IMG/VR virus record: IMGVR_UViG_3300035190_000190
Span: 11,123 to 75,122 of that record
Source of the DNA: a virus
Direction: 5' to 3' (one strand)
Length of the DNA stretch: 64,000 nt
The position numbers and the translations under genes were made by a program. Below are positions 812-21,190 of this stretch, one piece after another; position 1 is the stretch's first letter, and each line of letters opens with the position of its first letter. The notes under the pieces are model-generated. The model was not told the origin of the DNA, searched no databases, and worked only from the letters and a program-made list of their open reading frames with translations.

Positions 812-1704
812 GAGTAAAATTATTATGTACAGATGGCGAAGGCACATTTAGTGAAATTGCCTGGGATAAGCCAGAAATTACAGCAGATGATATCGAAGTA
901 CGTGCTGTACTAACAGGTGTTTGTCGTAGTGATATCGATATGATGCAGGGCGAGTTCGGGCCACTGCCAATTAGTATGCACGGACACGAAGGGTTAGGTC
1001 ACGTTACTAATGTTGGTGCTAATATTACTGATGTGAAAGTTGGCGATTATGTTGCTACACGTGGCGAACCTGCGTATGCTGATATGTATAACGTTAGAGC
1101 ACGAGAATATGTTCAAGTACCAACCGCAGAACCTAAATACATATTAGAACCAGTTGCCTGTGGCATCAATGTAGTAAATCAAAATTTACGTGATGTTGCT
1201 GAACGTGCCGGTGAAGGTCGACGCTTGTTGATATTAGGTAGTGGATTCCTTGCGTGGGTAGCGTATAATACATTGTTAATCAATCATTTAGAATTTGACA
1301 TTACAGTAATTGGTCGCAGTAATCAAGACTTGTGGCAGGGTAAATTATCTCAAGAAATTACTGGTGTTTATGATGTTATTATTGATTTAACTGAGCGCAC
1401 CGATTACTTACAAGGTGACTGTGTTGCAAATAATGGATTAATTATTATTGGTACAGACAAACATATTAATCAAACATTTGGACAATTGATTTGGAAAGCT
1501 GTTACTATTAGTTTTCCGAGCCCACGCACACCACGCTTTTATGAAGCAATGGTGTTAGCACGTGATTGGGTTGCTTCTGGTCAATTAACTGTTGACAAGT
1601 TCTGGACAAAGTCGTATAATAGAAAGACAGAGTGGCAATCTGCATTTGCAGATGGCGTTAATAGACCAGCAGGCTACAGTAGAGGATACATTAAGTGGGA
1701 TTAA
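808..1704 (+). CDS. Zn-dependent medium-chain dehydrogenase (MDR family)
   Basis: GVCRSD and GHEG catalytic Zn motifs, VKVGDYV, LEPVAC, Rossmann ILGSGFLA. Confidence 0.8.
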   Translation: MRVKLLCTDGEGTFSEIAWDKPEITADDIEVRAVLTGVCRSDIDMMQGEFGPLPISMHGHEGLGHVTNVGANITDVKVGDYVATRGEPAYADMYNVRAREYVQVPTAEPKYILEPVACGINVVNQNLRDVAERAGEGRRLLILGSGFLAWVAYNTLLINHLEFDITVIGRSNQDLWQGKLSQEITGVYDVIIDLTERTDYLQGDCVANNGLIIIGTDKHINQTFGQLIWKAVTISFPSPRTPRFYEAMVLARDWVASGQLTVDKFWTKSYNRKTEWQSAFADGVNRPAGYSRGYIKWD

Positions 1705-2213
1705 ACACAGAAGAACGTCAGGAAGTAGTATATTTTACAGGTTATGAAGTAGAGCATACTATATGTTATGGTATGAAAACTTTGTTTGTAGTGGGTACTC
1801 CGCCTGTAGAAGAAATACTTGAAAAAGCTCAAGCAAATGAATGTAGTCACATTTACTTTGGTACTAGTCAAAGTTTTAATCCGCAAGCAATGACCTATGA
1901 AGAATATAAGCCTTGGGATGATGTTATTCTTGAATGTTTAAAGAATGACTACTGGGTTAGCTTAGACTTTGGTGTAGAACACATCGAAGGTGTTATTGAA
2001 AGCGGATATTCCGAATACGCTAGATTTGTTCCTATGATTAGTGTTAAATTACCCTACATTAATCAACTTAACTACAATGCTACACTTAAACTTGATGACA
2101 TTACGTGGGGTAAAACTAATCCCGGCGTATGGACACATCATTTACAAACGCTAATGGGCAAAGATAAATTTACCTATTGGGATCAATATACTCAAGATAC
2201 AGAGATCAAATAA
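1695..2213 (+). CDS. hypothetical protein translationally coupled to DpdL-like gene
   Basis: 172-aa ORF, GAGGA upstream, TAATG overlap with next gene. Confidence 0.75.
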   Translation: MGLNTEERQEVVYFTGYEVEHTICYGMKTLFVVGTPPVEEILEKAQANECSHIYFGTSQSFNPQAMTYEEYKPWDDVILECLKNDYWVSLDFGVEHIEGVIESGYSEYARFVPMISVKLPYINQLNYNATLKLDDITWGKTNPGVWTHHLQTLMGKDKFTYWDQYTQDTEIK

Positions 2214-2617
2214 TGATACAAGAAGAACGTGAACAAATAGAACGTATTAAGTTTAATGGAATACGTACAACTTATATTAAAGTTAGAACTGAATTTGAAG
2301 GGTTTCATTACTACCCTAACGCAGGTACTATTGATTCGCGTATCAAATTTCTTGAGAATGAACATCGACATATATTCAAAGTTGAGGTGAAAATATCAGT
2401 TACGCACCTCGACCGTGAATTAGAATTTTTCTTAGTTAAATGGGCTTTACAAGAATTTATTAAAGCAGGCAATCAAAATCACAAATCGTGTGAGATGATT
2501 GCTGTTAACATTTTAGAAAATCATTTAATACCATTGTATGGTAATAGATCTTATACTGTAGTAGTATCCGAGGATGGGGAATCAGATGGTATTATTGAAT
2601 TTGTTCCACAGCTTTAA
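2213..2617 (+). CDS. dpdL: QueD-like T-fold protein, DpdL-like (putative CDG decarboxylase)
   Basis: FEGFH...LENEHRHIF fits the LxxxHRHxF motif, plus SCEMIA and VSEDGE; start placed at TAATG overlap. Confidence 0.65.
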   Translation: MIQEEREQIERIKFNGIRTTYIKVRTEFEGFHYYPNAGTIDSRIKFLENEHRHIFKVEVKISVTHLDRELEFFLVKWALQEFIKAGNQNHKSCEMIAVNILENHLIPLYGNRSYTVVVSEDGESDGIIEFVPQL

Positions 2618-3329
2618 TTAGTTCTTCTAAAGTTATTGAACAACTTATACGTTTAGATCTATTATCAAACTTAGGTAGTAATTCTAAATTAGCATAATGC
2701 CCTATAATTTCTGGAGAAATATTTTGTTTAAACCCTTCAGTAATGCTAAATTTATGATCTAATTCAAAGTTAGCACCTCGTTCTAAATTTTGAGGATTAA
2801 TTTTATTTTGATAGTGTGTCCAACTCTTATAAGTATGATTAAGGACTTGTTCTCTATACAATTCCCACTCAGTTTTTAGTTCCTTGGAAATAGCAATACC
2901 ATTTTTAATTTTTGTATATGTTGCTTCGATGTAGCAAGAAGGATTTCGTTTAATGGCCTTAGCTGATTGTTTTTGTTTAGTCTCATTACTATGAGTCTTA
3001 TTATACATAGGATTATTTTCGCCGGAATGCCCGCCTCTAGTAGCAATTGCTTTCGAAATTTTATTACCCTTTGTAGCAAGCCAACTACGATCGTTATGTC
3101 GTTCTTTAAGAACAGCATTTCCCCTCTCGCTCATCAGTTTTATATGAGCACGTCGTTGTTCTGGAGTAATTTTACTATCTCTAGATGCTTGTGCTTTTTT
3201 AATAAAACCAGGGCATTGAGTAATTTTCTCAACACATCTCATTTTTTTGGAATTATAACTTATGTAAAAGGCTTGACATCCGCACAAATAACACGTATTA
3301 TTAACATTAACATTAGTAAGTTTAGGCAT
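2592..3329 (-). CDS. free-standing HNH homing endonuclease with NUMOD3-like motif
   Basis: GENNPMYNKTHSNETKQK (NUMOD3-like); ELDHKFS...NLELLPKFDNRSK (HNH); N-terminal CxxC; antisense to neighbours. Confidence 0.75.
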   Translation of the reverse strand: MPKLTNVNVNNTCYLCGCQAFYISYNSKKMRCVEKITQCPGFIKKAQASRDSKITPEQRRAHIKLMSERGNAVLKERHNDRSWLATKGNKISKAIATRGGHSGENNPMYNKTHSNETKQKQSAKAIKRNPSCYIEATYTKIKNGIAISKELKTEWELYREQVLNHTYKSWTHYQNKINPQNLERGANFELDHKFSITEGFKQNISPEIIGHYANLELLPKFDNRSKRISCSITLEELIKAVEQIQ

Positions 3330-3351
3330 AGTTCTATCTCTCTATTGTTAT

Positions 3352-3358
3352 TATTTAT
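3352..3358 (-). promoter_or_regulatory. putative T4-type late promoter (ATAAATA) for the HNH gene
   Basis: tatttat on + strand 22 nt upstream of the HNH start. Confidence 0.5.
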
Positions 3359-3389
3359 CTCAGCCGTCACTATTTAAGGAGAATTTTCC

Positions 3390-3620
3390 GTGGCAAATCC
3401 AGTTTGGCTTAAAAAGTATCTTACTATGAAGCCCGAAGTAAGACAAATCTACAACGATTTAGATGCATGGTGCAACTACTGTCGTTTCCACATGATCAAG
3501 TATGATGAGGCTGATTTATATGTTAGCCCAGCTTACAAAGAATGGCAGGAAAAACGCAAACGTCGCGAACAATGGCGCCAACAACAAGGGCAAACGCAGG
3601 GTTATCAAGGACGTAGATAG
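3390..3620 (+). CDS. hypothetical protein
   Basis: AAGGAG SD, GTG start, 76 aa, basic/Gln-rich tail. Confidence 0.7.
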   Translation: MANPVWLKKYLTMKPEVRQIYNDLDAWCNYCRFHMIKYDEADLYVSPAYKEWQEKRKRREQWRQQQGQTQGYQGRR

Positions 3621-3621: not shown

Positions 3622-4215
3622 ATGACTGCTTACAGCAAGTCGAATATATCGATCATTGGTGAACAAGGCGATCTCGCTAAGGCATTATATAATAAGTTGA
3701 TATTAGAACACCATGTAATCTGTTATGGAAAAAATCAGTATGATTTTCTCAATAAAGATAATATTTCTACGTTAGTTGATAGTATCCATCAAAGTGATAT
3801 TATAATTAGCTGTCCTGGAGTTTTTGCTTCTGCTGACAGCTGGGAGACGTTTACTATAAATGCTCTTGCGCCAATTTATCTATTAGAAAAATTAGTAGAA
3901 AAACAATCCAAAGCTCATGTTATAATTGTGGGTAGTCATGGTGCTATGTGGACTAGTTGGCCAGGAATCTCAATGGGAAAATTGGCTTATAATGTCAGTA
4001 AAGAAACTATACAATCTTTTACTACAGGACTAAGCCAGTCTAATTTATCTGATCTGAAATTATCTGTGTTTAATCCTAGCGTATTCCAAAGTAAAATAAA
4101 TGGATATCAAGGTCATCCTATCGATATTATCGTAGATGGTATTATACATGTTATACAAGCTCCCGCTCCACTATTAATCTACGAATATAATAATTATCAA
4201 AATGCTAGTCGATAA
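3622..4215 (+). CDS. divergent short-chain dehydrogenase/reductase
   Basis: IIGEQGDLA Rossmann-like start, INALAP, YNVSK (YxxxK); start moved to ATG 3622. Confidence 0.6.
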   Translation: MTAYSKSNISIIGEQGDLAKALYNKLILEHHVICYGKNQYDFLNKDNISTLVDSIHQSDIIISCPGVFASADSWETFTINALAPIYLLEKLVEKQSKAHVIIVGSHGAMWTSWPGISMGKLAYNVSKETIQSFTTGLSQSNLSDLKLSVFNPSVFQSKINGYQGHPIDIIVDGIIHVIQAPAPLLIYEYNNYQNASR

Positions 4216-5308
4216 AATATCTCAAATTGAATTAGAATTAACTACTAAATGCAATGCTCGTTGTCCGCAGTGTATACGTAATTATTATGGGTCATATACG
4301 TGGCCTAGTTTACCTATTGTTGATTTAGATATTAATACACTTAAACAATCTATTAATTCTGAAATTTGGGAAAACTTAGATCATCTGAGATTATGTGGCA
4401 CTTACGGTGATCCATGTATGCATAAAGATCTTATTAAAATAGTAAAATGGATTAAAACCGTAAGCCCTGCAGCTATTACTATCAACTCCAATGGTGGAAT
4501 TAGAAACCCTAAGTGGTGGGGAGAACTTGCTGGTATACTAGATAGCGACAAAGACACAGTGGTTTTTGGATTAGACGGATTAGCCGATACCAATCATCTC
4601 CATCGAATTGGCGTAAATTATAATAAAGTTATAGAAAATCTTAAAGCATTCAACCAAGCCGGGGGTAAATCAGTTTGGCAATTTTTGGTATTCGAACATA
4701 ACGAACATCAAGTTGATATTGCTAGAGAATTTGCACTTAGTATCGGGTGCGCAGAATTTTCTTATAAATTAACCAGCAGATTTGTGGATAAAACCCATAA
4801 ATTAATAGATAAAAGTCCTGTGATGAATAATCAAGGCGAACCTATTTATTTTTTAAAGCCTGCTAAAAATTCTAAATATAAAAATCAAGGATATGATACC
4901 TTTGAAGAAACAACTAAACTATTTGATGGTTATGACAATTATTTAAAAACAACTACCATTGATTGTTTTGCAAAAAGAATGCAATATATAGCTATCACTG
5001 CCGAAGGTTATGTTTTTCCTTGTGCTTGGCTGGCTGATAGACTATATGGATACGAAACAGAAAAACATAAAGATCACGAAACCATTTTAAAAATGATTGA
5101 TAGTATAGGCGGTAAGGAAAAAATTAATTTAAAATATACAGATCTTAATAGTATTATTTCAGGGCCTTGGTTTGAGCTAGTAGAAAATAGTTGGAAAACC
5201 AATGAGTTAGAAAGATGTGCGCATATATGTGGCAGTAGAAGTGGGCTGATACAGGCCGCCAGCGAAGGCCAATTTAAAAGTTTAATTGATCCTAAGGTAA
5301 AAAAATGA
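4202..5308 (+). CDS. radical SAM protein with C-terminal SPASM/twitch domain
   Basis: CNARCPQC; GTYGDP; C-terminal C...GYVFPC...CAHIC. Confidence 0.85.
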   Translation: MLVDKISQIELELTTKCNARCPQCIRNYYGSYTWPSLPIVDLDINTLKQSINSEIWENLDHLRLCGTYGDPCMHKDLIKIVKWIKTVSPAAITINSNGGIRNPKWWGELAGILDSDKDTVVFGLDGLADTNHLHRIGVNYNKVIENLKAFNQAGGKSVWQFLVFEHNEHQVDIAREFALSIGCAEFSYKLTSRFVDKTHKLIDKSPVMNNQGEPIYFLKPAKNSKYKNQGYDTFEETTKLFDGYDNYLKTTTIDCFAKRMQYIAITAEGYVFPCAWLADRLYGYETEKHKDHETILKMIDSIGGKEKINLKYTDLNSIISGPWFELVENSWKTNELERCAHICGSRSGLIQAASEGQFKSLIDPKVKK

Positions 5309-6402
5309 CGATATTTTTAGTAGATCTAGAAGCAGTAGAAACTAGGTACACAGGGCAATGGAAGACTCATGTACCTACGTTGCTCGAGGAACATGGGCAC
5401 GAAGTTTATGTTGTTGCAGGACCTCATGATATTCCAGCGGCTACTACTCCCGGTGCTTTCCTTAACTTTGGCGGTACTAATATCTATAAAGCCAATCAAG
5501 TTGAACAAATAGCAAGACTATTCACAGAAGGTAGGATTGTCAAAGGGGATCATTTTATCTTTACTGATGCTTGGCACCCTGGCATCATTAATCTTAAGTA
5601 TATGAGTGAGCTACTGGGTATTCCTGTAACTATACATGCTCTATGGCACGCTGGTAGCTATGACCCACAGGACTTTTTAGGTCGTCTTATTGGTGATGCC
5701 CCGTGGGTACGTCACGCAGAAAAGAGTTTCTTTCATGCTATCGACTATAACTACTTTGCCACTGACTTTCATATTGAGATGTTCTTTACTAATCTATTAA
5801 ATGATTATCCTACTGAAAATCCTTGGTTTGATGAAGACCTAGCAGAACTACGTGCAGGTACACTTACAGATAAGATTGTACGCAGTGGATGGCCTATGGA
5901 ATATATGCCAGAAACTATTACACCTTATAAGACTGCTAAACGTGACTTAATCTTATTTCCGCATCGTATAGCACCAGAGAAGCAAGTTGAGATATTTAAA
6001 GAACTTGCGGCTGCACTACCACAGTATGAATGGATTGTATGTCAAGAGCAGAACTTGACAAAAGCAGGCTATCATACTTTACTAGGTGAAGCTAAGATGG
6101 TATTCAGTGCTAACCTACAGGAAACATTAGGTATTAGTATGTATGAAGGTGCCTTAACTGATGCTATTCCTATGGTTCCGGATAGATTGTCATACAGTGA
6201 AATGTATGCTGAGATTTGGAAGTATCCTAGTGAGTGGACTGAGTCATATAGCAGTTTCTTACATCATAAATCAGAACTATGCAATAAGATTGTGGAGTTT
6301 ATGACTGACTATGATGAATATGCTAAACTTGTTCCACAACAAGCACATAGTCTACATCATGATTTCTTTTCAGCAACTAAACTATTAGCTAATATCAAAT
6401 AA
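5305..6402 (+). CDS. GT-B (GT4-like) glycosyltransferase
   Basis: FPHRIAPEKQ and ETLGISMYE (Ex7E) motifs. Confidence 0.7.
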   Translation: MTIFLVDLEAVETRYTGQWKTHVPTLLEEHGHEVYVVAGPHDIPAATTPGAFLNFGGTNIYKANQVEQIARLFTEGRIVKGDHFIFTDAWHPGIINLKYMSELLGIPVTIHALWHAGSYDPQDFLGRLIGDAPWVRHAEKSFFHAIDYNYFATDFHIEMFFTNLLNDYPTENPWFDEDLAELRAGTLTDKIVRSGWPMEYMPETITPYKTAKRDLILFPHRIAPEKQVEIFKELAAALPQYEWIVCQEQNLTKAGYHTLLGEAKMVFSANLQETLGISMYEGALTDAIPMVPDRLSYSEMYAEIWKYPSEWTESYSSFLHHKSELCNKIVEFMTDYDEYAKLVPQQAHSLHHDFFSATKLLANIK

Positions 6403-6989
6403 TGAATGCCTTTGATCCAATATACCAGTTTGAACAAGCATTAGGTGCGCTTACGGGTGCACCTTTTGTCGTTATGACAGATTCGTGTACACATGCACTA
6501 GAACTGTGTCTACGTTACGACAAGGTAAAACGGTGTCGTTTTACGGCATTTACCTACCTTTCTGTGCCAATGACCATGCATAAATTAGACATTTCGTATG
6601 GTTTAGTGCCTGATAATGAATGGGTCGGAGAATATCCCATACTTGGTACACGGATATGGGATAGTGCGAGATTGCTACGTACAGGTATGTATCGTAGTGG
6701 GCAAATGCAGTGCTTGAGCTTTGGTCACAGCAAGCCATTGGATATTGGTCGTGGTGGTGCTATCTTGCTAGACGATGAAGTTGCCTACAACAAACTTATA
6801 CAGCAACGTGGCGACGGCAGAGACTTAAAGATAACACCATGGGAATCACAAAAGGTATTTGAAGTTGGCTATCATTATCGTCCAACCATAGAAGAAGCAG
6901 TACAAGCATTAGAAAAATTACCGTTGGTTAATCAAGAATCTAAATACGTTGTGTATCCAGATCTTAGAGAGATAATTATAAAGGATTAA
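6402..6989 (+). CDS. short DegT/DnrJ/EryC1/StrS-type PLP-dependent protein
   Basis: DSCTHAL, WDSA, SFGHSKPLDIGRGG (PLP lysine); only 195 aa. Confidence 0.75.
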   Translation: MNAFDPIYQFEQALGALTGAPFVVMTDSCTHALELCLRYDKVKRCRFTAFTYLSVPMTMHKLDISYGLVPDNEWVGEYPILGTRIWDSARLLRTGMYRSGQMQCLSFGHSKPLDIGRGGAILLDDEVAYNKLIQQRGDGRDLKITPWESQKVFEVGYHYRPTIEEAVQALEKLPLVNQESKYVVYPDLREIIIKD

Positions 6990-6990
6990 T

Positions 6991-7911
6991 ATGAAAGTTT
7001 TTATCACAGGAGCTAGTGGATTCATTGGCTCCCATTTTGTTAAAGTATTAGAAAATAACCATATGGTGCATTCGATGCAGTCGGACTTATTGGAATTTTC
7101 AAAAGTTAGACAAGAATTATTCGACTTTGACCCCGATGTGATTGTACACTTTGGTGCGAGAACCGAAGTCGAGCGTAGTTTTTACGAACAAGTTACTTTT
7201 AGTCAGGTTAATTATGTCGGTACTGTAAATTTAATCGAAAGTGCCGCTAAACTTAAAAATCTAAAAAATTTCGTATTCGCTAGTACAATGGAAGTGTACG
7301 GCTGGCAGCCAGTGAGTGATATAATTAAAGAGAAGGGATATCTCAAAGATATTCCGATATTTGACGAAAATACTATCCCAAATCCCAATGCTCCGTATGC
7401 TGTTGCCAAATATGCTTGCGAAAAATATTTAGAATATGCTCACAGAAGCTTAGGTCTTCCATTTTGTGCTATTAGACAAACCAATACATACGGTCGTAAG
7501 AAGAATGATTTTTTTGTTGTAGAACAGATTATTACACAAATGATGAAAAATCCTAATATTATTAACTTAGGATACGATACTCCATATAGAAATTTCTTAT
7601 ATATCGATGATTTACTAAATTTATGGTCTACTATCATTGAAAATCCAGATAAAGTAAGCAATGGTTATATTTTTACTATAGGACCAAATAATCCCATTCA
7701 GATTAAAGAATTAGCAAATGTTATTGCTAAGAAATTAGATTGGCATGGCGAAATAAAGTGGAATTCAAAACCTGCTAGGCCTGGAGAAATTTATCTATTA
7801 AACAGTGGCCACGAATTGGTTACCAAAATAACTGGATGGAAGCCGACTGTAGATTTAAATAACGGGTTAGATAGAACCATTGATCATTGGAAAATAGAGT
7901 TAAGCAAATAA
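6991..7911 (+). CDS. NAD-dependent nucleotide-sugar epimerase/dehydratase
   Basis: ITGASGFIG, ASTMEVYG, YAVAK. Confidence 0.9.
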   Translation: MKVFITGASGFIGSHFVKVLENNHMVHSMQSDLLEFSKVRQELFDFDPDVIVHFGARTEVERSFYEQVTFSQVNYVGTVNLIESAAKLKNLKNFVFASTMEVYGWQPVSDIIKEKGYLKDIPIFDENTIPNPNAPYAVAKYACEKYLEYAHRSLGLPFCAIRQTNTYGRKKNDFFVVEQIITQMMKNPNIINLGYDTPYRNFLYIDDLLNLWSTIIENPDKVSNGYIFTIGPNNPIQIKELANVIAKKLDWHGEIKWNSKPARPGEIYLLNSGHELVTKITGWKPTVDLNNGLDRTIDHWKIELSK

Positions 7912-9693
7912 ATGCATAATGTCTATCTATTCCAGCCACAATATGCTGTAGAATTTCGAGAAGAAAAAAATTATTGGTTACCATATAGTGCTGGGTGCTT
8001 ATGGAGTTATGCTAGCCAATTTACTGATATAAGAGAAAATTTTATTCTTCGAGAATTATTCTTTAAAAGACAGCCTATCGACGAAATATTAGATAGGATC
8101 GATAATCCGAAAGTTTGTGGATTTAGTTGTTATTTGTGGAACGAACGGTATAGTCTAACATTAGCTAAAGCGATAAAATTGCGATGGCCGGAATGTATAA
8201 TTGTATTTGGTGGCGCTCAGGTCAGTGGCCGTATGCTTAAATATGAATTTATCGATTCACTGGTTATGGCAGAAGGTGAAGAAGCATTTACTAAAATTTT
8301 ACAAGATATAATTGCTAAAAATCCCATAGATAAGCTAACGTCACGAGCACGGCTTCAAGATCTTAATATACCAAGTCCGTATGTCACTGGTGTGTTTGAT
8401 CAATTAATTATAGATAACCCTAATACTATATGGGCAATGACATTAGAAACTAATCGAGGGTGTCCGTATGCTTGTACATTTTGTGATTGGGGAGGTACCA
8501 CTTATAGTAAAGTTAAGAAGTTCGATCTCGACAAGGTTGCGGCAGAACTAGACTGGGCAGTTAATCATCGAGTGGCTTATATTTTTAGTGCTGATGCTAA
8601 TTTTGGTATATTTAAAGAACGAGATGTTGAAATTGCTAAATTGATACGGACAGCGGCTGATAATTCAATTATCGAAACTGTTAATTTACAATTTGCAAAG
8701 AATAGTACAGAAATTGTTTTCGAAATTGCTAAAATCATGGGGCCATATAATCGAGGTATTACAGTTAGTGTGCAGAGTATGAATGACCTTACTTTAGAAA
8801 CAATTAAACGTAAAAATCTTGAAATAAACAATATTAAATATCTATTAGAACTTAGCAAAAAGTATGACCTTAGTACTTACACCGAAGTTATATTGGGATT
8901 ACCTCACGAAACAAAAGAATCATGGATAAATGGATTATCCCAACTGTTAGAATTGGGACAACACCAAAGCATTGATATCTGGTTTACACAATTACTCGAG
9001 AATTCAGAACTTGCCACAGAACAAAGTAGAAGAGAGTACGGTATTAAATCTATATTAGTTAAAGATTATATGAACTTAGACCAAACCGAAGATAGTATAC
9101 CCGAATATACTGAAATTGTGTGCGAAACTAATACAATGTCTACTGAGGAAATGATTGATTGTTATATGTATACCTGGATGATCATACATTTTCATATTGC
9201 CGGGTATACACAAATTATAGCCAAATATGCCAGAAATCTTGAAAATATATCATTCAAAATATTTTACGACCAATTATTTACAGAAATACAATATAATAAA
9301 TCGCTCGGCGAACATTACCAATCGTTACGAAATACTGTTACTGATTATCTAACTACAGGTACCCTAACAGGAAAACTAGCCGGCGGCCATGCATTGCATG
9401 CAGTTTCGTATAAGTTTATGTACGAAAATAGATGCACCGTAGCTAACCTTGCTGTAACTGCATTAAAAAAATTAATACCGATTGTACCATCAGATCTACT
9501 GTTACTGCAAGATTTGTTTATTATAGATATAACTACACAATATCCCCAAACCTTACAAACCAATTATAACATCGACACTGGCAGTAAGATGATAACTACC
9601 TATGTAATAACTCAACGAATTAAAGAACAAATAGAAGATTTTTATACTATACGGAGAAAAGGGTTAATAAAAAACCTATTATTAATATTATGA
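7912..9693 (+). CDS. cobalamin-binding radical SAM protein
   Basis: GFSCYLWN...IVFGGAQ B12-binding-like domain; ETNRGCPYACTFCDW; DANFG. Confidence 0.85.
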   Translation: MHNVYLFQPQYAVEFREEKNYWLPYSAGCLWSYASQFTDIRENFILRELFFKRQPIDEILDRIDNPKVCGFSCYLWNERYSLTLAKAIKLRWPECIIVFGGAQVSGRMLKYEFIDSLVMAEGEEAFTKILQDIIAKNPIDKLTSRARLQDLNIPSPYVTGVFDQLIIDNPNTIWAMTLETNRGCPYACTFCDWGGTTYSKVKKFDLDKVAAELDWAVNHRVAYIFSADANFGIFKERDVEIAKLIRTAADNSIIETVNLQFAKNSTEIVFEIAKIMGPYNRGITVSVQSMNDLTLETIKRKNLEINNIKYLLELSKKYDLSTYTEVILGLPHETKESWINGLSQLLELGQHQSIDIWFTQLLENSELATEQSRREYGIKSILVKDYMNLDQTEDSIPEYTEIVCETNTMSTEEMIDCYMYTWMIIHFHIAGYTQIIAKYARNLENISFKIFYDQLFTEIQYNKSLGEHYQSLRNTVTDYLTTGTLTGKLAGGHALHAVSYKFMYENRCTVANLAVTALKKLIPIVPSDLLLLQDLFIIDITTQYPQTLQTNYNIDTGSKMITTYVITQRIKEQIEDFYTIRRKGLIKNLLLIL

Positions 9694-10829
9694 CATTAGA
9701 CCACACACAAACAATTTTTGATAATCAAACCTTAAATTATGACTTAGAAAAATATCCATTACCTGCTATAGTATTAGAAACTATTCAACAATTTTATCCA
9801 GATGCAACAACACTGGACACATTGCACGAAGTGGTGCCGGCAAATAAAATACAACAATTAATGGTTGACACCACACAGGCTTTACTTAAGAATAAATTTT
9901 ATGATTACTATGATACTATGATTCAAGATCAGATAGTATCAACGCTAGGCAAGGAAGTATTAATTCAAAAGTTTGGTAATCTTAGAATCCTACCACCAAA
10001 TCAAGACCAAATTGGAGCAGTATTGCTATTTCATCAAGGTCGGTGGGTGGGTAATGGGTTGGGTTTACGCACAATTTGGATGCCATTCACTGATTGCTAT
10101 GAAAGTAATAGCATGCAAATGTTAGATTTAGACATTAGTAGAAAAATTACTAGAGAATCTGTTATAGAGAAATGGAGTTATGAAAAATTACAACAAGTCT
10201 GTGTAGATAACTGTTGGCCGGTTACATTACAGCCAGGGCAGGCACACTTGTTTTTACAAGAACATATACACGGTAATATCCCCAATAGGACTAATAAAAC
10301 TAGAGTTAGTATCGATATAAGATTGTTAATAAAAGATGAGCAACCTCATCGTAAATGGCCAGGGGCATATTTCCGCAAATTATTCGATCGAGACTATTCC
10401 AAAACTATCCCAATCTTAGCACATGAAAAAGTATTAAATTATTGTGAATACGAAGGCGTTAAAACTAAACATATTGATCTATATTTTCAAACATTAGTAG
10501 TCAAATCCTATTGCCAAAAACGTGGATATACTTATCCGTATCAACATGGAGACAACGAAGGATTAAACTATGCGCATCTTGAGTATTTGATATCTAGCAA
10601 GAGTGCAGATCATTTATTATTGTTTAGTATTTTTAGTTTGCCAGATGATGCTGCACATCGTATAAGATTACTGACTACTGCATTAGATCTCGGTGTACGA
10701 ATACATCTGTGCAATGAAGAAATGGTATTAGAATCTTATGAAGATCTTGAAAAAATAGAATATATTCGAAACTTTACAAATGATTGGTCGACTCCAGTCG
10801 AACAGCTTAGTAAAGAATTGAATAATTAA
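9690..10829 (+). CDS. StrG-like/2OG-Fe(II) oxygenase fused to a carbohydrate-cluster-associated domain
   Basis: IWMPFT...HIHGNIPNRTNKTRVSIDIR jelly-roll end; distinct C-terminal domain (FSIFSLP...IHLCNE). Confidence 0.6.
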   Translation: MTLDHTQTIFDNQTLNYDLEKYPLPAIVLETIQQFYPDATTLDTLHEVVPANKIQQLMVDTTQALLKNKFYDYYDTMIQDQIVSTLGKEVLIQKFGNLRILPPNQDQIGAVLLFHQGRWVGNGLGLRTIWMPFTDCYESNSMQMLDLDISRKITRESVIEKWSYEKLQQVCVDNCWPVTLQPGQAHLFLQEHIHGNIPNRTNKTRVSIDIRLLIKDEQPHRKWPGAYFRKLFDRDYSKTIPILAHEKVLNYCEYEGVKTKHIDLYFQTLVVKSYCQKRGYTYPYQHGDNEGLNYAHLEYLISSKSADHLLLFSIFSLPDDAAHRIRLLTTALDLGVRIHLCNEEMVLESYEDLEKIEYIRNFTNDWSTPVEQLSKELNN

Positions 10830-10917: not shown

Positions 10918-11619
10918 ATGTCAGAAATTAAATATGCAGTAAGCGAACGAATTCGCAGTAACTTAAAAGCGAAGAATAAACGCTTCTGGGCAGGTGACAA
11001 CGTATCTGAATATATCACTGAAGAAGATAAACAACTATTAATCAACGAAGCCACATTGGCTTTTGAAGGAGTGCTAGATGCACTACTAATTGACCGTGAA
11101 AATGATCCAAACTCAAAAGGCACAGCACGTAGACTTGCTAAGATGTACTATCATGAAATTATGGCAGGTAGATATGATCCGGCGCCAGATGCAACTGCAT
11201 TTCCAAATGATAGCACGGATCGCTATGAAGGTATGCTAGTGGTACGTAGTGAACTGCGTAGTATGTGTAGTCATCATCATCAACCAGTTAAAGGTGTAGC
11301 CTATATTGGTATTATTGCTGCACAAAAACTAATTGGACTTAGTAAGTATACACGTATCGCGCAATGGTGTGCTACACGTGGCACATTACAAGAAGAATTA
11401 TGTAATGATATTTCAAGAGAGATTATGAAGGCTACGGGCAGTAATGATGTTGCTGTATATATTCAAGCAACACATGGTTGCTGTGAGAATCGTGGTATTT
11501 TAGCACATAGCTCGCTCACACAAACTACAGTACTCAAAGGTGCATTTAATAATGACCCAGGTACTAAACAAGAATTCTTTGATAATGTAAAACTTCAACA
11601 ACAGTTTGCACCACGATAG
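10918..11619 (+). CDS. folE: GTP cyclohydrolase I
   Basis: SMCSHH, IGLSKYTRI, LQEEL, HGCCENRG. Confidence 0.95.
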   Translation: MSEIKYAVSERIRSNLKAKNKRFWAGDNVSEYITEEDKQLLINEATLAFEGVLDALLIDRENDPNSKGTARRLAKMYYHEIMAGRYDPAPDATAFPNDSTDRYEGMLVVRSELRSMCSHHHQPVKGVAYIGIIAAQKLIGLSKYTRIAQWCATRGTLQEELCNDISREIMKATGSNDVAVYIQATHGCCENRGILAHSSLTQTTVLKGAFNNDPGTKQEFFDNVKLQQQFAPR

Positions 11620-11628: not shown

Positions 11629-11970
11629 ATGAAATGGTTAGATAATTGGATTCAGCGTTGCTACAACCGTGCTCGTGAGTGTGATGAACTTATTGAAGTT
11701 GATGATTGGGATGAACCAAAACGTAGTCGTCGTGGGCGCCTTAGTAAAGGAGGGCCTATTAGTGCTGGCACACGCAGAGTAGAGCATAACTATGATGATG
11801 ACAGTGTTATTACTTTTAAAATCTACGGCGCTAATGGTGGTAAGATTGTAGAAACATCACGCTGGGATGAAAAGAAAGATAACGAAAGTATTAGACGTTA
11901 TGTCATTGACGAGAACGCAGATATGGCAGAAAGTTTAAGCAAGATTGTTACTATGGAGTATATGCGATGA
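11629..11970 (+). CDS. hypothetical protein
   Basis: 113-aa ORF coupled to next gene by ATGA. Confidence 0.7.
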   Translation: MKWLDNWIQRCYNRARECDELIEVDDWDEPKRSRRGRLSKGGPISAGTRRVEHNYDDDSVITFKIYGANGGKIVETSRWDEKKDNESIRRYVIDENADMAESLSKIVTMEYMR

Positions 11971-12464
11971 ATAATGTTGAAAAAGTTTATTACGATGACG
12001 TACACATCAAAGAAATGATTGGTAATATCACCATGCAAATGCATCGTGGCGGTGTATGGAAACCTGATTACATTGTCGGACTAACACGTGGCGGATTAAT
12101 TCCAGCAGTGTATCTAAGTCATTATCTTAATGTTCCAATGGAAACGTTAAAAGTAAGTTTGCGTGATAATGCAGATACTGAAAGTAATTGCTGGATGGCC
12201 GAAGATGCATACAATGGCAAAAACATTCTTATCGTAGATGATATCAACGACACAGGTGCTACACTAGATTGGATTATTAACGATTGGCAAAGTAGCTGTC
12301 ATCCCTCTGATGCGCATTGGTCGAATGTTTGGGGTAATACTGTGAAATTTGCTGTGCTAGTTGATAATTTAAGCAGTAACTTTAGTCGTACTGTAGACTA
12401 TTCAGCTAAAGAGATTAACAAAGCAGACAAGGATGTATGGATTGTTTATCCATGGGAAAGGTAG
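11967..12464 (+). CDS. type I phosphoribosyltransferase (xanthine/guanine PRT-like)
   Basis: VGLTRGGLIPA, ILIVDDINDTGAT PRPP loop, WIVYPWE. Confidence 0.9.
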   Translation: MNNVEKVYYDDVHIKEMIGNITMQMHRGGVWKPDYIVGLTRGGLIPAVYLSHYLNVPMETLKVSLRDNADTESNCWMAEDAYNGKNILIVDDINDTGATLDWIINDWQSSCHPSDAHWSNVWGNTVKFAVLVDNLSSNFSRTVDYSAKEINKADKDVWIVYPWER

Positions 12465-12468
12465 TAAT

Positions 12469-13674
12469 ATGTCTTATACGTATTATATATCTTCTTTCAG
12501 TTACTGTATCCATCCGGCAATTTACAAAGAATGGGCTACACTATACCTAAGTAACAAAATTAAAAAAATTAAAACTCCCATTGATCAAACTGAGGTGATA
12601 TTAAGTTATTGGATGGAATCTGAAATGTATATCGAAGAAACTATCGAAATTATCAAATCTTATAATTTTAAAAAAATTACAATAATAGCGGACTTTAGTC
12701 AAAAATCTAAATGTGATCTAATAGATGGAATCGATGTTACTTATTTAAATATATATCCATTGATATTAAAAAATATGCAATCTCAACACCAAGAAGAACC
12801 ACGGTGGAATCCATGTTTAGTTAAGGGATTATTGCTTGCAGGTGCTCACATTGTACGTACAAATCGAATAGTATTATTAAAAAAATTATATGATAAACAG
12901 CAATTACTAATAGATAAAATAATGTGGACCTGTCCGCATATTAAAAAATACTCCGAGGAGTTGACTAACATATTTTTTCCTAATATTAATCGCAGCGAAG
13001 TTGATAATTTTATTAATTATTGTGATGAACAGTCAGTATTTATACCCGGATTCTTTGTGAATAACGCTAACTACGAAGAAGCCAATGAATTTGCATCAAC
13101 TCAAGAAGGCGATGCACTTGCTGACTTGTTTAAACAAACAAATTTTAGTATTGTAACGGAAAGTGAATACCTTAGTCCTGATATCGACAATAGTGAATTT
13201 TTTACAGAAAAAATCTACAGAGCAATTTATAATAAACATCCATTTATTTTAGTTGGGGCGCCAAAATGTTTATCTGCTTTAAAAGCAATGGGATTTAAAA
13301 CATTTGAAAATTATTTACCAATACCAGAATATGATAATATTTTAGATCTATTTCCAAGATTAGATGCTATAGTAGATAACATTGTGGCATTTCCCGATGC
13401 CATAGCACAGTATAGTAGTAATATAAATGATGATATTGACTATAATTATGCTCTATTAAATGATAATATGAATAGAGATTTAACATTCTTGAATAATTTA
13501 TGTATTAAAAAAAATCTACCCGTTGATACATTTGAGTTCTGTTTCCCTGTTAATTGGAGTGATATCAAAAAACAGATTGCAAGTGTAAAAGAATTTAATC
13601 GGCAATCTCAAGAATTAATAGCAGAAAGAATATTGACTTCAAAGTATAAAAAGTATATTGACTTTAAAATATAA
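12469..13674 (+). CDS. AT-rich hypothetical protein with GT10-like C-terminal region
   Basis: FSIVTES...FFTEKIYRAI...PFILVG...GFKTF. Confidence 0.5.
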   Translation: MSYTYYISSFSYCIHPAIYKEWATLYLSNKIKKIKTPIDQTEVILSYWMESEMYIEETIEIIKSYNFKKITIIADFSQKSKCDLIDGIDVTYLNIYPLILKNMQSQHQEEPRWNPCLVKGLLLAGAHIVRTNRIVLLKKLYDKQQLLIDKIMWTCPHIKKYSEELTNIFFPNINRSEVDNFINYCDEQSVFIPGFFVNNANYEEANEFASTQEGDALADLFKQTNFSIVTESEYLSPDIDNSEFFTEKIYRAIYNKHPFILVGAPKCLSALKAMGFKTFENYLPIPEYDNILDLFPRLDAIVDNIVAFPDAIAQYSSNINDDIDYNYALLNDNMNRDLTFLNNLCIKKNLPVDTFEFCFPVNWSDIKKQIASVKEFNRQSQELIAERILTSKYKKYIDFKI

Positions 13675-13691: not shown

Positions 13692-14540
13692 ATGAAACTA
13701 AAAATCAGTGAGATATTTTATAGTGCGCAAGGCGAAGGACGTTTTATCGGCGTTCCGTCGTTATTTCTGCGTACATTTGGCTGTAACTTTACCTGCGGTG
13801 GGTTCGGTATGCCTCGCGGCGAAGTTAGTACAGAGCGCAACATAATCAAAGTTGAGCAGTATAAGACGTATAATGATTTGCCACTTGTTAATACAGGGTG
13901 CGACAGTTATGCAAGCTGGGATCCAAGGTTCAAAAGCCTGAGTCCATTGTTATCAGTAGATGAAACAGTTAAGCAAATGCTCGATGTTGTTCCCAATAAC
14001 AATTGGCAACAAGCAAATGGTAATAATGTGCATTTGGTTATCACAGGTGGTGAGCCATTATTAGGCTGGCAACGTGCGTTTCCTAAATTATTAGCACATG
14101 ATGATATGTTTAACTTGCTTAACTTAACATTTGAAACAAACGGCACACAGGCATTACACGAGGACTTTGCGGCATACTTGAAGCTGTGGAAAAGACAAGC
14201 ACGTGAGATTACATTTAGTGTAAGTCCAAAGTTAAGTGCCAGTGGCGAAACATGGGAAGATGCTATCAAGCCTGCGATTGTGGCAAGTTATGAGAAGGTT
14301 GGTACAACCTATCTTAAGTTTGTTATTGAAACACCCAGCGACTTCGATGAAGTTGATCGTGCAGTAACGGCATATAGAACGGCAGGCTTTATAGGTATGG
14401 TTTACGTTATGCCAGTTGGTGGTGTTGTCAGTGTATATGATGGTAACAAGTTCCATATCGCAGACGAAGCTATGAAGCGTGGTTATTATTACAGTCCCAG
14501 ATTACATGTTGATCTATGGGGCAATAGTTGGGGCAAATGA
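13692..14540 (+). CDS. queE: 7-carboxy-7-deazaguanine synthase (radical SAM)
   Basis: EIFYSAQGEG, FLRTFGCNFTC...GCDS, ITGGEP, ETNGT, SVSPKL, PRLH. Confidence 0.92.
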   Translation: MKLKISEIFYSAQGEGRFIGVPSLFLRTFGCNFTCGGFGMPRGEVSTERNIIKVEQYKTYNDLPLVNTGCDSYASWDPRFKSLSPLLSVDETVKQMLDVVPNNNWQQANGNNVHLVITGGEPLLGWQRAFPKLLAHDDMFNLLNLTFETNGTQALHEDFAAYLKLWKRQAREITFSVSPKLSASGETWEDAIKPAIVASYEKVGTTYLKFVIETPSDFDEVDRAVTAYRTAGFIGMVYVMPVGGVVSVYDGNKFHIADEAMKRGYYYSPRLHVDLWGNSWGK

Positions 14541-14740
14541 TAGAAACAAAGAAAAGAACCATAGTTAGAATGCTTACCTATAGGCTCACAGCATGGTTAT
14601 TTACAATCTTTTGGACTTGGTTAATTATGGGTGACTTAGCAACATCGACAGGATTTGCTACTATACTACATCTATTATTAAGTATCGATTATTATGTACA
14701 CGAACGTATGTGGTTAAAAATTAAATGGGGTATGAGATGA
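14537..14740 (+). CDS. small membrane protein, DUF2061-like
   Basis: ETKKRTIVRMLTYR...YYVHERMWLKIKWG. Confidence 0.7.
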   Translation: MIETKKRTIVRMLTYRLTAWLFTIFWTWLIMGDLATSTGFATILHLLLSIDYYVHERMWLKIKWGMR

Positions 14741-15834
14741 GTTATCTATTTACAAGTGAAAGTGTTAGTGAAGGACATCCAGATAAAGTAGCAGATGCTA
14801 TCAGTGATGCTATCTTAGATTTAGCCATGTACGGCGAAAATGTAAGTGTGCGCTGTGCCTGTGAAACATTAGTCACTACCAATCGTGTTATCGTTGCTGG
14901 AGAATATAAAAATGTTACGCTTCATCCTGAAGAAGTCGAAAGTGTCATACGCAAAACGATTAAAGAAATTGGCTACGAACAAACAGGGTTTGATTGGCGT
15001 ACAGTTGAAATCACAAATTTATTACATGGGCAAAGTGCGGACATTGCACTAGGCACAGACACATTTGGTGCAGGTGATCAAGGACTTATGTTTGGTTATG
15101 CGACTAATGCTACACCAAACTACATGCCGCCAGCAATTTACTGGAGTCACAAGATTGTAGAAGAACTAGCAAATCGCCGCAAAAACTTTGGTGCTACTTG
15201 GCTTGGTCCAGATGCTAAAAGTCAAATAACAATAGAATTCAATGATGATGGCACAGTAAATCATATTGCTAAAATTGTATGCAGTACACAGCACACAGAA
15301 GAATTCAATATTCATGAAATTCGGGCGGCTGTTCATACTATTATTACTGATGTTATACCTCCTACCCTATTCAAAGCCGATACAGAGATACTTATCAACC
15401 CAACTGGCAGATTCGTTATTGGCGGACCAGATGGTGATACTGGATTAACTGGACGTAAGATTATTGTTGATACCTATGGTGGTAGTTGCCCCCATGGCGG
15501 TGGTGCTTTTAGCGGCAAAGATCCTACTAAAGTTGACCGCAGTGCTGCCTACATGGCTCGTTACCTAGCTAAAAACATTGTAGCTAGTGGTCGTGCTAAT
15601 TGGGCAACTGTACAATTAGCCTATGCCATTGGTGTAGAACAACCAATGAGTGTTTATGTCGATAGTGATGGAAATAATACCGAACTAACCGAGTGGATAA
15701 CTACTAATGTAGACCTAACTCCTAGAGGCATTATTAACAGATTTAAACTGTTCCGCCCTATTTACAGTAGTACAACTAATTACGGACACTTTGGTAAGGA
15801 TGGTTTACCATGGGAAGAGTTAGATTTATTTTAA
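14737..15834 (+). CDS. metK: S-adenosylmethionine synthetase
   Basis: FTSESVSEGHPDK, GAGDQG, GGGAFSGKDPTKVDRS. Confidence 0.97.
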   Translation: MSYLFTSESVSEGHPDKVADAISDAILDLAMYGENVSVRCACETLVTTNRVIVAGEYKNVTLHPEEVESVIRKTIKEIGYEQTGFDWRTVEITNLLHGQSADIALGTDTFGAGDQGLMFGYATNATPNYMPPAIYWSHKIVEELANRRKNFGATWLGPDAKSQITIEFNDDGTVNHIAKIVCSTQHTEEFNIHEIRAAVHTIITDVIPPTLFKADTEILINPTGRFVIGGPDGDTGLTGRKIIVDTYGGSCPHGGGAFSGKDPTKVDRSAAYMARYLAKNIVASGRANWATVQLAYAIGVEQPMSVYVDSDGNNTELTEWITTNVDLTPRGIINRFKLFRPIYSSTTNYGHFGKDGLPWEELDLF

Positions 15835-18027: not shown

Positions 18028-18558
18028 ATGCAGATTAATGTAAATTGGAATATTATTCCTACCCATACCATCGATGTATCTACTATCGAAGTTCCGTACG
18101 ATATTTCCTTAATTATGAAGGCATTTGGTATAGATAGATACTGCTATCAAATTATGTGCAAGGGAATTGTTATCAAATACGGTATGAGTGCTGACAATAG
18201 TAGAAACTATGGTGAGCGATTATATAGACAAATTGGCCATAGTAAGAGCTGGGGCAGCAAGCGACTAAACGGATCTAGTGGGGCAGACTGGCGTATTATC
18301 GAAGAAGACTTTTTAGATCTATATAAGTTTCCCATTGACAAAGATCATATCAAGATCAAAATTTGGGATTTAACTAATTATCCCTTTGTTACTATTAATC
18401 CCTGGGACGAGGTTAATGCTATAGAAGCACAGTTAATTGATGCGTATGTTGCTGCCGTTGGTGAAAAACCAATTGGTAATATTAACGATGAAGCAAATAT
18501 AGTACGCAAGGCAGGCATTAGACTCGATACAATGAATCATTTATTTGAAATTTTTTAG
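18028..18558 (+). CDS. hypothetical protein, possible divergent GIY-YIG nuclease
   Basis: YCY...IKYGMS...ERL...IEAQLI...PIGN spacing resembles GIY-YIG. Confidence 0.45.
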   Translation: MQINVNWNIIPTHTIDVSTIEVPYDISLIMKAFGIDRYCYQIMCKGIVIKYGMSADNSRNYGERLYRQIGHSKSWGSKRLNGSSGADWRIIEEDFLDLYKFPIDKDHIKIKIWDLTNYPFVTINPWDEVNAIEAQLIDAYVAAVGEKPIGNINDEANIVRKAGIRLDTMNHLFEIF

Positions 18559-20070: not shown

Positions 20071-20083
20071 ATGTTAATTAACA

Positions 20084-20590
20084 ATGAAAACTTTTGTATT
20101 TTCTTTGTTAATCTGTATTGGAGTGAGTGGTTGTGCTACTCCGGAAATAACCAAACTCAGCGAGCAAGACTATAAGGTTGTGGGTAAACTTCATAAAGAA
20201 GAATACGACGAAATAATTACCATAGTCAAGCAACACCCCAACCAACCGTTGAATTTTTATGTCACGTCAATTGGCGGTACCAGTGAAGATTTGTTAGATG
20301 CTATGGATACAGTATATCAACACGGACTAGTTAATTGGTATGCTGTAGAATATTGTGACAGTGCCTGTGCTATTATGGCCTTAGCTACTCATCACGCCAA
20401 TGGTGAGTTTAAACTACATTCGTTCTATTCGCATAAGCAACATCAAATACTTGCGGCACCGGAATACAATGAACGTATATTAAAAAAGTTAAACTCGTAC
20501 GGATACGACACAGATCGTATGCATCATATGTTTGATAGTGTAGAACATTTATGGCCAATAGTTATTGTAGATGGCAAAATAATTGATTGA
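20084..20590 (+). CDS. putative lipoprotein with ClpP/crotonase-like fold
   Basis: Signal peptide with lipobox VSGC; SIGG...CDSAC...LH. Confidence 0.55.
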   Translation: MKTFVFSLLICIGVSGCATPEITKLSEQDYKVVGKLHKEEYDEIITIVKQHPNQPLNFYVTSIGGTSEDLLDAMDTVYQHGLVNWYAVEYCDSACAIMALATHHANGEFKLHSFYSHKQHQILAAPEYNERILKKLNSYGYDTDRMHHMFDSVEHLWPIVIVDGKIID

Positions 20591-20615
20591 CTTTACAGCA
20601 AAACCTAAATATAAT
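20587..20615 (+). promoter_or_regulatory. sigma70-type promoter for queD with overlapping TAAATA
   Basis: TTGACT-17-TATAAT. Confidence 0.75.
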
Positions 20616-20638
20616 AGTAAAATAGACAAGGAAAACTT

Positions 20639-21190
20639 ATGGCACACGTAATTGATAAAACATTTGAATTCTGTTATGGACACAGAGTACACACACAAAA
20701 ACTTAATGGTGAATATGCGGCAGATTTAAAGTGTGCCTGCCGTCATTTACACGGACATGAAGGTAAGATGCAGGTGTTCTTAAAGAGCCCAACAGGTCAG
20801 TTAGATCCAACTGGTATGGTTACTGACTTCCGCCATTTAGAATGGTTAAAGAAATGGATTAACGAGTATATCGATCATCAGTTTATGCTTGATGTCAATG
20901 ATCCATTGTTTGGTCAATTGATTGGCACACGTGCAATGATTCCAGTATACATTCCAGAAACAGACAAGTATGCAGGTAGTATACTTGATTTAAGTGACTT
21001 GGAACCAAACACACCAGAGTATGAATACTTCGAAGGTTTCTTTATTGTAGACTTTGTTCCCACTAGTGAAAACTTATCAAGTTGGATGGCAGAGTTAGTA
21101 GATGCTAAGATGAAGAAACTAAACGTAACAGTAGACCGCATTGACTGGTGGGAAACTCCTAAGTCACGCAGTACTTTTATTAGAGGTTAA
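20639..21190 (+). CDS. queD: 6-carboxy-5,6,7,8-tetrahydropterin synthase
   Basis: FCYGHR, CRHLHGH, GMVTDF, DHQF, PTSENL, WETP. Confidence 0.92.
   Translation: MAHVIDKTFEFCYGHRVHTQKLNGEYAADLKCACRHLHGHEGKMQVFLKSPTGQLDPTGMVTDFRHLEWLKKWINEYIDHQFMLDVNDPLFGQLIGTRAMIPVYIPETDKYAGSILDLSDLEPNTPEYEYFEGFFIVDFVPTSENLSSWMAELVDAKMKKLNVTVDRIDWWETPKSRSTFIRG

Follow-up and report, generated by a model that had tools for sequence, protein, structure and literature searches.

A widespread, undescribed DpdA/DpdL-type 7-deazaguanine gene cluster with a conserved GT4-like glycosyltransferase in phages

Deazaguanine modifications of DNA shield phage genomes from restriction enzymes, and eight such derivatives are known; to our knowledge, none of these eight carries a sugar. 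In this work, we analysed a stretch of 64,000 nucleotides (the window), which comprises bases 11123-75122 of a 75-kb viral contig (IMG/VR record IMGVR_UViG_3300035190_000190) and carries, at positions 1695-21190, genes for deazaguanine synthesis interleaved with a glycosyltransferase (GT) gene and genes for further enzymes. An earlier reading of the letters alone (the original prediction) had proposed here a new route of DNA hypermodification. The cluster is a known kind of system, of the DpdA/DpdL type, in a widespread and undescribed variant with a conserved GT4.

The completeness of the 75-kb fragment was estimated by CheckV to be 21%, which corresponds to a jumbo phage of roughly 330 kb, and a complete relative with terminal repeats (G001) has a size of 329 kb. 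Judged by its sequence, the fragment stems from a jumbo phage that shares synteny in the replication-gene region with Pseudomonas phage PA5oct. In a collection of 50,697 phage records, megablast of the region gave no match. Gene calls were checked by Pfam, NCBIfam and PHROG scans. For comparison with relatives, 80 IMG/VR loci were fetched via the GT and all proteins of the window were mapped onto them; occurrence counts given as x/80 refer to this GT-anchored set unless another set is named. A second set of 80 loci was anchored on DpdL, and both sets together comprise about 150 environmental loci. The pathway genes and the conserved genes linked to them are the following (aa, amino acids; ORF, open reading frame):

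Contig 6775-8448 (L001:6775-8448), ending 2.7 kb upstream of the window: 557-aa protein with a tRNA-guanine transglycosylase (TGT) fold, putative long-form DpdA (fold, GDSGGFQ, synteny)
1695-2213, plus strand: 172-aa protein (unk172), conserved partner of DpdL by synteny; its stop overlaps the dpdL start
2177-2617, plus strand: DpdL-type T-fold protein with LENEHRHIF, proposed decarboxylase of 7-carboxy-7-deazaguanine (CDG); likely start ATG at 2210
3390-3620, plus strand: conserved 76-aa ORF between dpdL and the GT gene (same position in 41/80; no family match)
5305-6402, plus strand: 365-aa GT-B glycosyltransferase, GT4-like and of retaining type (AlphaFold2 (AF2) model and Foldseek)
6402-6989, plus strand: 195-aa DegT/DnrJ/EryC1-like mini enzyme of the pyridoxal-phosphate (PLP) type, semi-conserved, directly after the GT gene (PF01041)
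10918-11619, plus strand: GTP cyclohydrolase I, FolE (PF01227, 128 bits; 62/80)
11629-11970, plus strand: conserved 113-aa ORF between folE and the next gene (30/80 at >50% coverage; no family match)
11967-12464, plus strand: type I 6-oxopurine phosphoribosyltransferase (PRT; PF00156, 56 bits)
13692-14540, plus strand: QueE-like radical S-adenosylmethionine (SAM) enzyme, putative CDG synthase (sub-threshold QueE NCBIfam matches; 55/80)
20639-21190, plus strand: QueD, 6-carboxytetrahydropterin (CPH4) synthase (PF01242, 92 bits; CRHLHGH at residue 34)

DpdL proteins are defined by the signature LxxxHRHxF in place of the CxxxHGH of QueD (Cui et al. 2023, PMC10516641). The LENEHRHIF of the protein encoded at 2177-2617 fits this signature, and the residues L, HRH and F do not vary among 56 homologues and are kept in a cross-phage alignment of nine lineages, with HFH for HRH in the DpdL of PA5oct. 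In pairwise comparisons, the protein is 34% identical to CGPG_00067 of phage phiST (E 1e-13) and 39% identical to gp125 of phage ACP17 (E 2e-17), and both of these were also recovered by tblastn against the phage collection; identity to the protein of Synechococcus phage BUCT-ZZ01 is 63%. The assignment of this second T-fold protein as DpdL-like, made originally from its motif, is thereby extended by homology to the type members of phiST and ACP17. DpdL co-occurs here with DpdA, FolE, QueD and QueE, without QueC.

The gene directly upstream, encoding unk172, was present in 71/80 GT-anchored and 51/80 DpdL-anchored loci. The protein is 30% identical to gp122 of ACP17 and belongs to a family of 771 clusters at 50% identity. 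Pfam (E <= 10), a PDB profile search and a scan of 1.84 billion representatives yielded no function, and hhalign against phiST CGPG_00066 and PA5oct gp164 gave no assignment. The best score in an Atlas search (0.84) was obtained with fragments of glycoside hydrolases, a weak lead. Some family members reach 230-350 aa through C-terminal extensions, which match neither DpdL nor any consistent Pfam family and thus offer no informative fusion. The 'glycosylase' encoded upstream of dpdL in phage Phosso was considered as a counterpart of unk172 and proved to be unrelated.

The lead to a transglycosylase came from synteny with PA5oct, its identification solely from fold search and motif. Full-length alignment of the 557-aa protein with PA5oct gp168 (540 aa), which is encoded at the same position, gives 34% identity. 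Its AF2 model has a pLDDT (predicted local distance difference test) of 80, and the Foldseek matches in the PDB listed to rank 50 are all Z. mobilis TGT; the motifs GDSGGFQ, LDxP, GG and HFLGT are invariant in 31 homologues of the long form. Long DpdA was detected in 66/80 and 59/80 related loci of the two sets, and its profile finds one copy each in G001, PA5oct and Phosso. With the Pfam model PF01702, neither the contig nor G001 nor BUCT-ZZ01 gave a TGT match. This negative says little, because the same model also misses the accepted DpdA3 of phiST; it finds nothing in ACP17 either. Use of the phiST DpdA3 protein as query likewise gave no match, and a PDB sequence profile search with the long-DpdA alignment returned nothing. 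Nor did hhalign of this family's profile give an informative match with single sequences of DpdA3 or of the TGT-like protein of X1. PA5oct has been listed earlier with a deazaguanine synthesis and incorporation system (Iyer et al. 2021).

Since dpdA lies on the same contig, the system is an ordinary base-exchange system and not a new insertion route. The DpdA-free route implied by the original prediction is contradicted by the presence, 2.7 kb before the window start, of a protein with TGT fold and GDSGGFQ motif that is syntenic with PA5oct gp168. The prediction had also suggested a search of the remaining genome for dpdA and queC; the former was found on the same contig, the latter neither there nor in complete relatives. 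The deazaguanine/DpdA core of the system we regard as highly probable.

Of the enzymes assigned to CDG synthesis, FolE and QueD exceed the Pfam cut-offs, and QueD satisfies the CxxxHGH signature. The QueE-like protein is 43% identical to the annotated QueE of BUCT-ZZ01 and 30% identical to PA5oct gp162; its cysteines C31, C35 and C70 (CNFTC...GC) are unusual compared with the compact CxxxCxxC or Cx14CxxC arrangements. The absence of queC from the window was borne out and extends to the whole 75-kb contig and to the complete genomes of G001, PA5oct, ACP17 and BUCT-ZZ01. This absence agrees with a CDG-level pathway of the DpdL type, and the assignment of the locus as a QueC-less, DpdL-type deazaguanine cluster is supported. 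A QueF-like protein (PF14489, E = 3e-17) is encoded inside the cluster of one relative, though the lineage is without QueC. The PRT has its best PDB matches among archaeal purine PRTs and xanthine-guanine PRT (XGPRT), and its phosphoribosyl-pyrophosphate (PRPP) loop ILIVDDINDTGATL aligns with that of the 1vdm PRT. Homologues of this PRT occur within the clusters of PA5oct (gp163) and BUCT-ZZ01; none was found in the clusters of ACP17 and X1.

For the GT, no Pfam match was obtained at E <= 0.01, the GT1/GT4 models PF00534 and PF13439 included; PF00534 is carried by some of its relatives (29% of one Atlas cluster). The AF2 model (pLDDT 82) matched GT4 structures, namely GlgM, glycogen synthase, PimB', BshA and MshA, with a Foldseek probability of 1.00, and the best match in BFVD was the GT of ACP17 (TM score 0.81-0.86). 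In the C-terminal domain, E273-x7-E281 (EX7E), R221 and K226 are invariant; we take EX7E and the phosphate-binding R/K residues to be the defining motifs of GT4. Invariant positions are dense in the N-terminal (acceptor) half, suggesting a single fixed acceptor. The family comprises more than 8000 clusters at 90% identity.

The mini DegT-like enzyme encoded directly after the GT reaches 41 bits with PF01041 (cut-off 19.8), in two stretches. Lys111 (SFGHSK) and Asp87 (WDSAR), which correspond to the PLP-binding lysine and the aspartate at the pyridine nitrogen, are invariant in 21 homologues. With 195 aa, compared with about 360 aa in full-length fold-type I enzymes, it is short, and profile positions of about 77-168 and 245-360 are missing. 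The gene was found in 29/80 GT-anchored and 25/80 DpdL-anchored loci. A mini DegT with an invariant lysine just downstream of the GT hints at an amino sugar in this lineage.

The linkage of dpdL and the GT gene, which had been named as a test of the original prediction, is conserved in at least six cultured phage lineages and in most environmental relatives. In the cultured-phage collection, DpdL was detected in 29 records. The GT gave 17 strong matches there (eleven PA5oct-like phages, Phosso, ACP17 with two records, X1, BUDD and BCSR5), and all 17 fall in DpdL-positive genomes. The GT gene adjoins dpdL in ACP17, PA5oct and Phosso, is one gene apart from it in X1 and follows it within the cluster at a distance of about 3 kb in BCSR5; a more divergent homologue directly follows dpdL in BUCT-ZZ01. 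Among the environmental loci, all 74 GT-anchored loci with upstream sequence carry DpdL, and the GT gene lies downstream of dpdL in 64/80 DpdL-anchored loci, most of the others being incomplete contigs. GT-bearing phages are split over two transglycosylase families, the long form and phrog_10773, the latter annotated as queuine tRNA-ribosyltransferase in X1. Glucosylation of a hydroxymethyl-pyrimidine by the GT was also considered; it was rejected for the family as a whole, as no ThyA-family gene was found in ACP17, which has the GT.

In the GT-anchored loci, the recurring gene order is unk172, DpdL, 76-aa ORF, GT, (mini DegT), FolE, (113-aa ORF), PRT, QueE, 143-aa ORF and flap endonuclease (FEN), and insert-free minimal clusters exist among the relatives, for example L029 and L006. 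This matches the backbone deduced earlier by removing the HNH gene and the AT-rich inserts (unknown, dpdL, small ORF, GT, PLP enzyme, folE, ORF, PRT, queE), which is correct because most relatives lack the insert genes. The inserts, real accessory cassettes, have a lower GC content, with a mean of 0.343 for accessory genes compared with 0.390 for core genes (Mann-Whitney p = 0.009). The GT gene has a GC content like that of the core genes and is present in every minimal cluster; on these grounds, we consider it a backbone gene and a true member of the pathway.

All enzymes named in the original prediction (FolE, QueD, QueE, the second T-fold protein, the GT-B enzyme, the mini PLP enzyme, the purine PRT and MetK) were found where it had placed them. 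Six more genes in the interval had been left unnamed, encoding an SDR-like (short-chain dehydrogenase/reductase) protein, a radical SAM/SPASM protein, an epimerase/dehydratase, a B12 radical SAM protein, a 2-oxoglutarate (2OG) oxygenase fusion and a 413-aa ORF. The accessory genes between the backbone genes are:

2592-3329, minus strand: HNH/NUMOD3 homing endonuclease, a mobile insert (PF07460; at this site in 8/80; GC 0.317)
3622-4215, plus strand: SDR/RmlD-like reductase (weak SDR and RmlD matches; 0/80; GC 0.332)
4202-5308, plus strand: radical SAM/SPASM-type enzyme (PF04055 and SPASM-family NCBIfam matches; 0/80)
6991-7911, plus strand: NAD-dependent sugar epimerase/4,6-dehydratase (PF01370, PF16363; 6/80)
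7912-9693, plus strand: B12-binding radical SAM enzyme of the KedN5-like C-methyltransferase type (NF033712, 184 bits, below cut-off; 9/80, positions vary)
9690-10829, plus strand: 2OG-Fe(II) oxygenase fused to a LIC12192-like domain (TIGR04324 and TIGR04323, both below cut-offs; 1/80)
12433-13674, plus strand: rare AT-rich 413-aa ORF, start perhaps near 12613 (GC 0.282; 0/80)
14725-15834, plus strand: S-adenosylmethionine synthetase, MetK (all three MetK Pfam domains; 10/80)

MetK could be a supplier of SAM for the radical SAM enzymes. The ORF at 9690-10829 joins both 'sporadic carbohydrate cluster' families, the 2OG oxygenase of TIGR04324 and the LIC12192-like domain of TIGR04323. For the 413-aa ORF, just 10 homologues were found among 5.8 billion proteins, with an invariant TEK...HPF...G motif, and no phage, Pfam or PDB match was obtained; an assignment as fucosyltransferase-type GT, suggested by a likeness of TEK...HPF, was not confirmed by Pfam and PDB profile search. 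Between dpdA and the 172-aa gene (window 2-811 and 808-1704; L001:8449-10749) lie genes for a sulfate-permease-family protein, a zinc alcohol dehydrogenase-like protein, a radical SAM protein and a Gfo/Idh/MocA oxidoreductase, which are also accessory because they occur in only 3-15/80 relatives.

The relatives (L005-L084) provided 71 accessory gene families, with sugar-nucleotide enzymes as a recurrent class: three epimerases, two GDP-mannose dehydratases, two full-length DegT proteins, a UDP-glucose dehydrogenase, a cytidylyltransferase and a PfkB kinase. Other enzymes among these families are four radical SAM proteins, two methyltransferases and two 2OG oxygenases. Both the sugar genes and the radical SAM genes are cargo that varies within an accessory-gene hotspot.

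Several known systems can be compared with this cluster. One of the closest described pathways is that of phiST, in which FolE, QueD, QueE, DpdL and DpdA3 belong to the 2'-deoxy-7-deazaguanosine (dDG) system (PMC10516641). Both are CDG-level systems without QueC, with an LxxxHRHxF DpdL and a TGT-superfamily transglycosylase near replication genes. They differ in that the 557-aa transglycosylase has no detectable sequence similarity to DpdA3, and in that phiST is without GT4, mini DegT, PRT and unk172 and has instead a MazG-like protein and CGPG_00066; also, the DNA base is known for phiST only. In gene order, the stretch gp159-gp170 of PA5oct agrees with the locus, with a structural protein, gp168 (DpdA, 34%), gp167 (GT, 43%), gp166 (DpdL), gp163 (PRT), gp162 (QueE), gp160 and gp159 (FEN, 50%). 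However, the GT gene precedes dpdL in PA5oct, the radical SAM and sugar cassettes are absent from the compared stretch, and a BLASTP search for homologues of unk172, mini DegT and FolE, confined to these 18 kb and not extended to the whole genome, was negative. In ACP17 (gp119-gp126), X1 and BUCT-ZZ01, DpdL lies at or near a homologous GT (22-35% identity), together with FolE, QueD and QueE, and ACP17 also has the unk172 homologue gp122; in these three phages, the transglycosylase candidate is a phrog_10773 protein of 416-437 aa, which is missed by the long-DpdA profile.

Outside deazaguanine DNA modification, the huimycin and tubercidin pathways of actinomycetes are alike by description. HuiG, a GT4-type enzyme of huimycin synthesis, N-glycosylates a deazapurine base, and tubercidin is made via CDG by means of a PRT and a decarboxylase, QueC being absent. 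These are secondary-metabolite pathways without DpdA, and their decarboxylase is of the UbiD family and not a T-fold protein. Phage glycosylation of pyrimidines (glucosyl-5-hydroxymethylcytosine in T4, arabinosyl-5-hydroxycytosine in RB69 and HY126) likewise employs phage GT-B enzymes with nucleoside diphosphate sugars on DNA and strain-variable sugar pathways. Those enzymes, however, need a hydroxylated pyrimidine, whereas ACP17 keeps the GT without a ThyA-family enzyme. The HY126 GT (PDB 9ir0) was found at Foldseek rank 40 for the GT analysed here, no closer than generic GT4 enzymes. In the literature searched, no paper ties a glycosyltransferase to deazaguanine DNA modification.

The best overall explanation, to which we give an even chance, is that the cluster is the biosynthetic half of a DpdA/DpdL-type 7-deazaguanine system with the GT as decorating member. 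FolE, QueD and the QueE-like enzyme would convert GTP to CDG, as established for these families, the membership in the QueE family being weak here. Without QueC, the pathway would halt at CDG, which DpdL would decarboxylate to 7-deazaguanine (DG) as proposed in the literature. After replication, long DpdA would swap this base for guanine in phage DNA, as suggested by its fold, motif and synteny, and the PRT would most likely recycle the released guanine to GMP and further to GTP feeding FolE. The GT4 would most likely add a sugar to the deazapurine, either as free base before insertion, like HuiG, or in the DNA itself, and a hypermodified base not yet described would result. An amino sugar, produced with the help of the mini DegT-like enzyme, may be attached in this lineage, and the strain-variable radical SAM enzyme, epimerase, B12 radical SAM enzyme and oxygenase may diversify the donor sugar. 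More tentatively, we propose that a glycosylated 7-deazaguanine may replace G in the phages with DpdL and GT4, i.e. PA5oct-like phages, Phosso, ACP17, X1, BCSR5, BUCT-ZZ01 and a very abundant uncultured jumbo-phage lineage.

A number of observations weigh against this reading. On the side of the core, CDG decarboxylase activity is a proposal of the literature even for the type DpdLs (Cui et al. 2023, PMC10516641). The QueE-like protein matches five QueE NCBIfam models without reaching a cut-off (47 bits against a cut-off of 206), and the 557-aa DpdA is undetected by PF01702, a model likewise blind to phiST DpdA3. The role of the GT in decorating deazaguanine is hypothetical for every GT-bearing phage. 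Moreover, 7-deazaguanine offers no hydroxyl group, which limits the sugar acceptors to N2, O6 or a still-carboxylated intermediate. A few DpdL loci (L106, L147 and L151) are truly without GT, and DpdL without GT is also found in the phiST group, MA9V-3 and other phages. Full replacement of G by dDG has been measured only in phiST-type phages, all of which lack the GT (Cui et al. 2023, PMC10516641), and the GT is therefore not needed to make or insert DG.

In an alternative that we hold to be rather unlikely, the phages contain plain dDG as phiST does. The targets of the GT and of the sugar cassettes would then be something else, such as host or virion glycans or a small molecule, and these genes would have come to lie near dpdL only through the collection of accessory genes. 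Many unrelated accessory genes indeed occupy slots between the core genes, and the intergenic slots that hold the sugar cassettes also hold genes for a halogenase, a subtilase, an AMP-binding enzyme, a desaturase, a dCMP deaminase and a sulfate permease. Polymorphic GT clusters are common in jumbo phages and are read in the literature as modifiers of surface polysaccharides; near structural genes, the window contains additional sugar and radical SAM genes outside the cluster, and the cassettes may serve surface-glycan functions. Also, the GT is acidic (pI 5.2), as is the long DpdA, whereas DNA glucosyltransferases are not known to be acidic. What speaks for a function in the pathway is that the GT belongs to the backbone, with core-like GC content and presence in every minimal cluster, that its close homologues in cultured phages are restricted to DpdL-positive genomes, at or near dpdL, in phages otherwise sharing little, and that its invariant acceptor half points to a single fixed acceptor.

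A different fate of the base is conceivable, although we judge it improbable: the PRT would make the nucleotide of DG (or of CDG, like TubE), from which 7-deaza-dGTP would be formed by reduction and phosphorylation and used by the family B polymerase of the phage, DpdA being dispensable or having another role. 7-Deaza-dGTP is a good polymerase substrate, a 6-oxopurine PRT lies inside the cluster here as well as in PA5oct and BUCT-ZZ01, and the tubercidin pathway, with CDG, a PRT and a decarboxylase but no QueC, is a precedent. However, a TGT-fold DpdA is conserved in the same module, the clusters of ACP17 and X1 are without PRT, the cluster has no linked kinase, reductase or dGTP-removing enzyme, and recycling of the guanine released by DpdA accounts for the PRT equally well. 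We consider it very improbable that the joint product of FolE, the T-fold proteins and the GT is a small molecule which does not enter DNA, either a pterin glycoside or a free deazapurine glycoside like huimycin. Tetrahydrobiopterin glucosyltransferases are among the Foldseek matches of the GT (ranks 31-44), but no better than generic GT4 enzymes, and the precedent of HuiG, which glycosylates a free deazapurine base, is opposed by the strict linkage to the QueE-like gene and DpdA within a DNA-replication module and by the modification of PA5oct DNA at G. The DNA of PA5oct is resistant to several restriction enzymes with G in their site, the sole and indirect evidence bearing on a 7-deazaguanine derivative in virion DNA of such a system.

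With the long DpdA, the 172-aa protein, DpdL and GT4, the cluster defines a widespread DpdL sub-type. This offers an explanation for an earlier experiment, in which DpdL of ACP17 or phiST together with the cognate DpdA produced no dDG in E. coli and missing enzymes were proposed by the authors (Cui et al. 2023, PMC10516641): for ACP17, the GT and the 172-aa partner had been left out. PA5oct, ACP17, Phosso and X1 are cultured phages, so that the prediction is directly testable. If the prediction is true, the product would be a glycosylated purine, of which the literature searched gives no earlier example in any DNA, and would represent a new class of DNA hypermodification and a new acceptor type for GT-B enzymes. 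The variable aminotransferase, dehydratase, radical SAM and C-methyltransferase cassettes would then vary the sugar in the course of an arms race against modification-dependent nucleases. This would bear on how phages withstand modification-sensing nucleases, for example the END nucleases targeting PA5oct, and the enzyme would possibly be useful for enzymatic DNA labelling.

Further genes of related types were observed in the window outside the deazaguanine cluster. A ThyA-family gene (31910-32743) is followed by genes for a nucleotide-sugar epimerase and an aminotransferase (window 31910-35088 in total). On the minus strand, positions 38490-48293 encode a Nol-like carbamoyltransferase and two large radical SAM proteins (849 and 450 aa). 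Also on the minus strand, an ORF of 1673 aa (58969-63990) runs off the window end.

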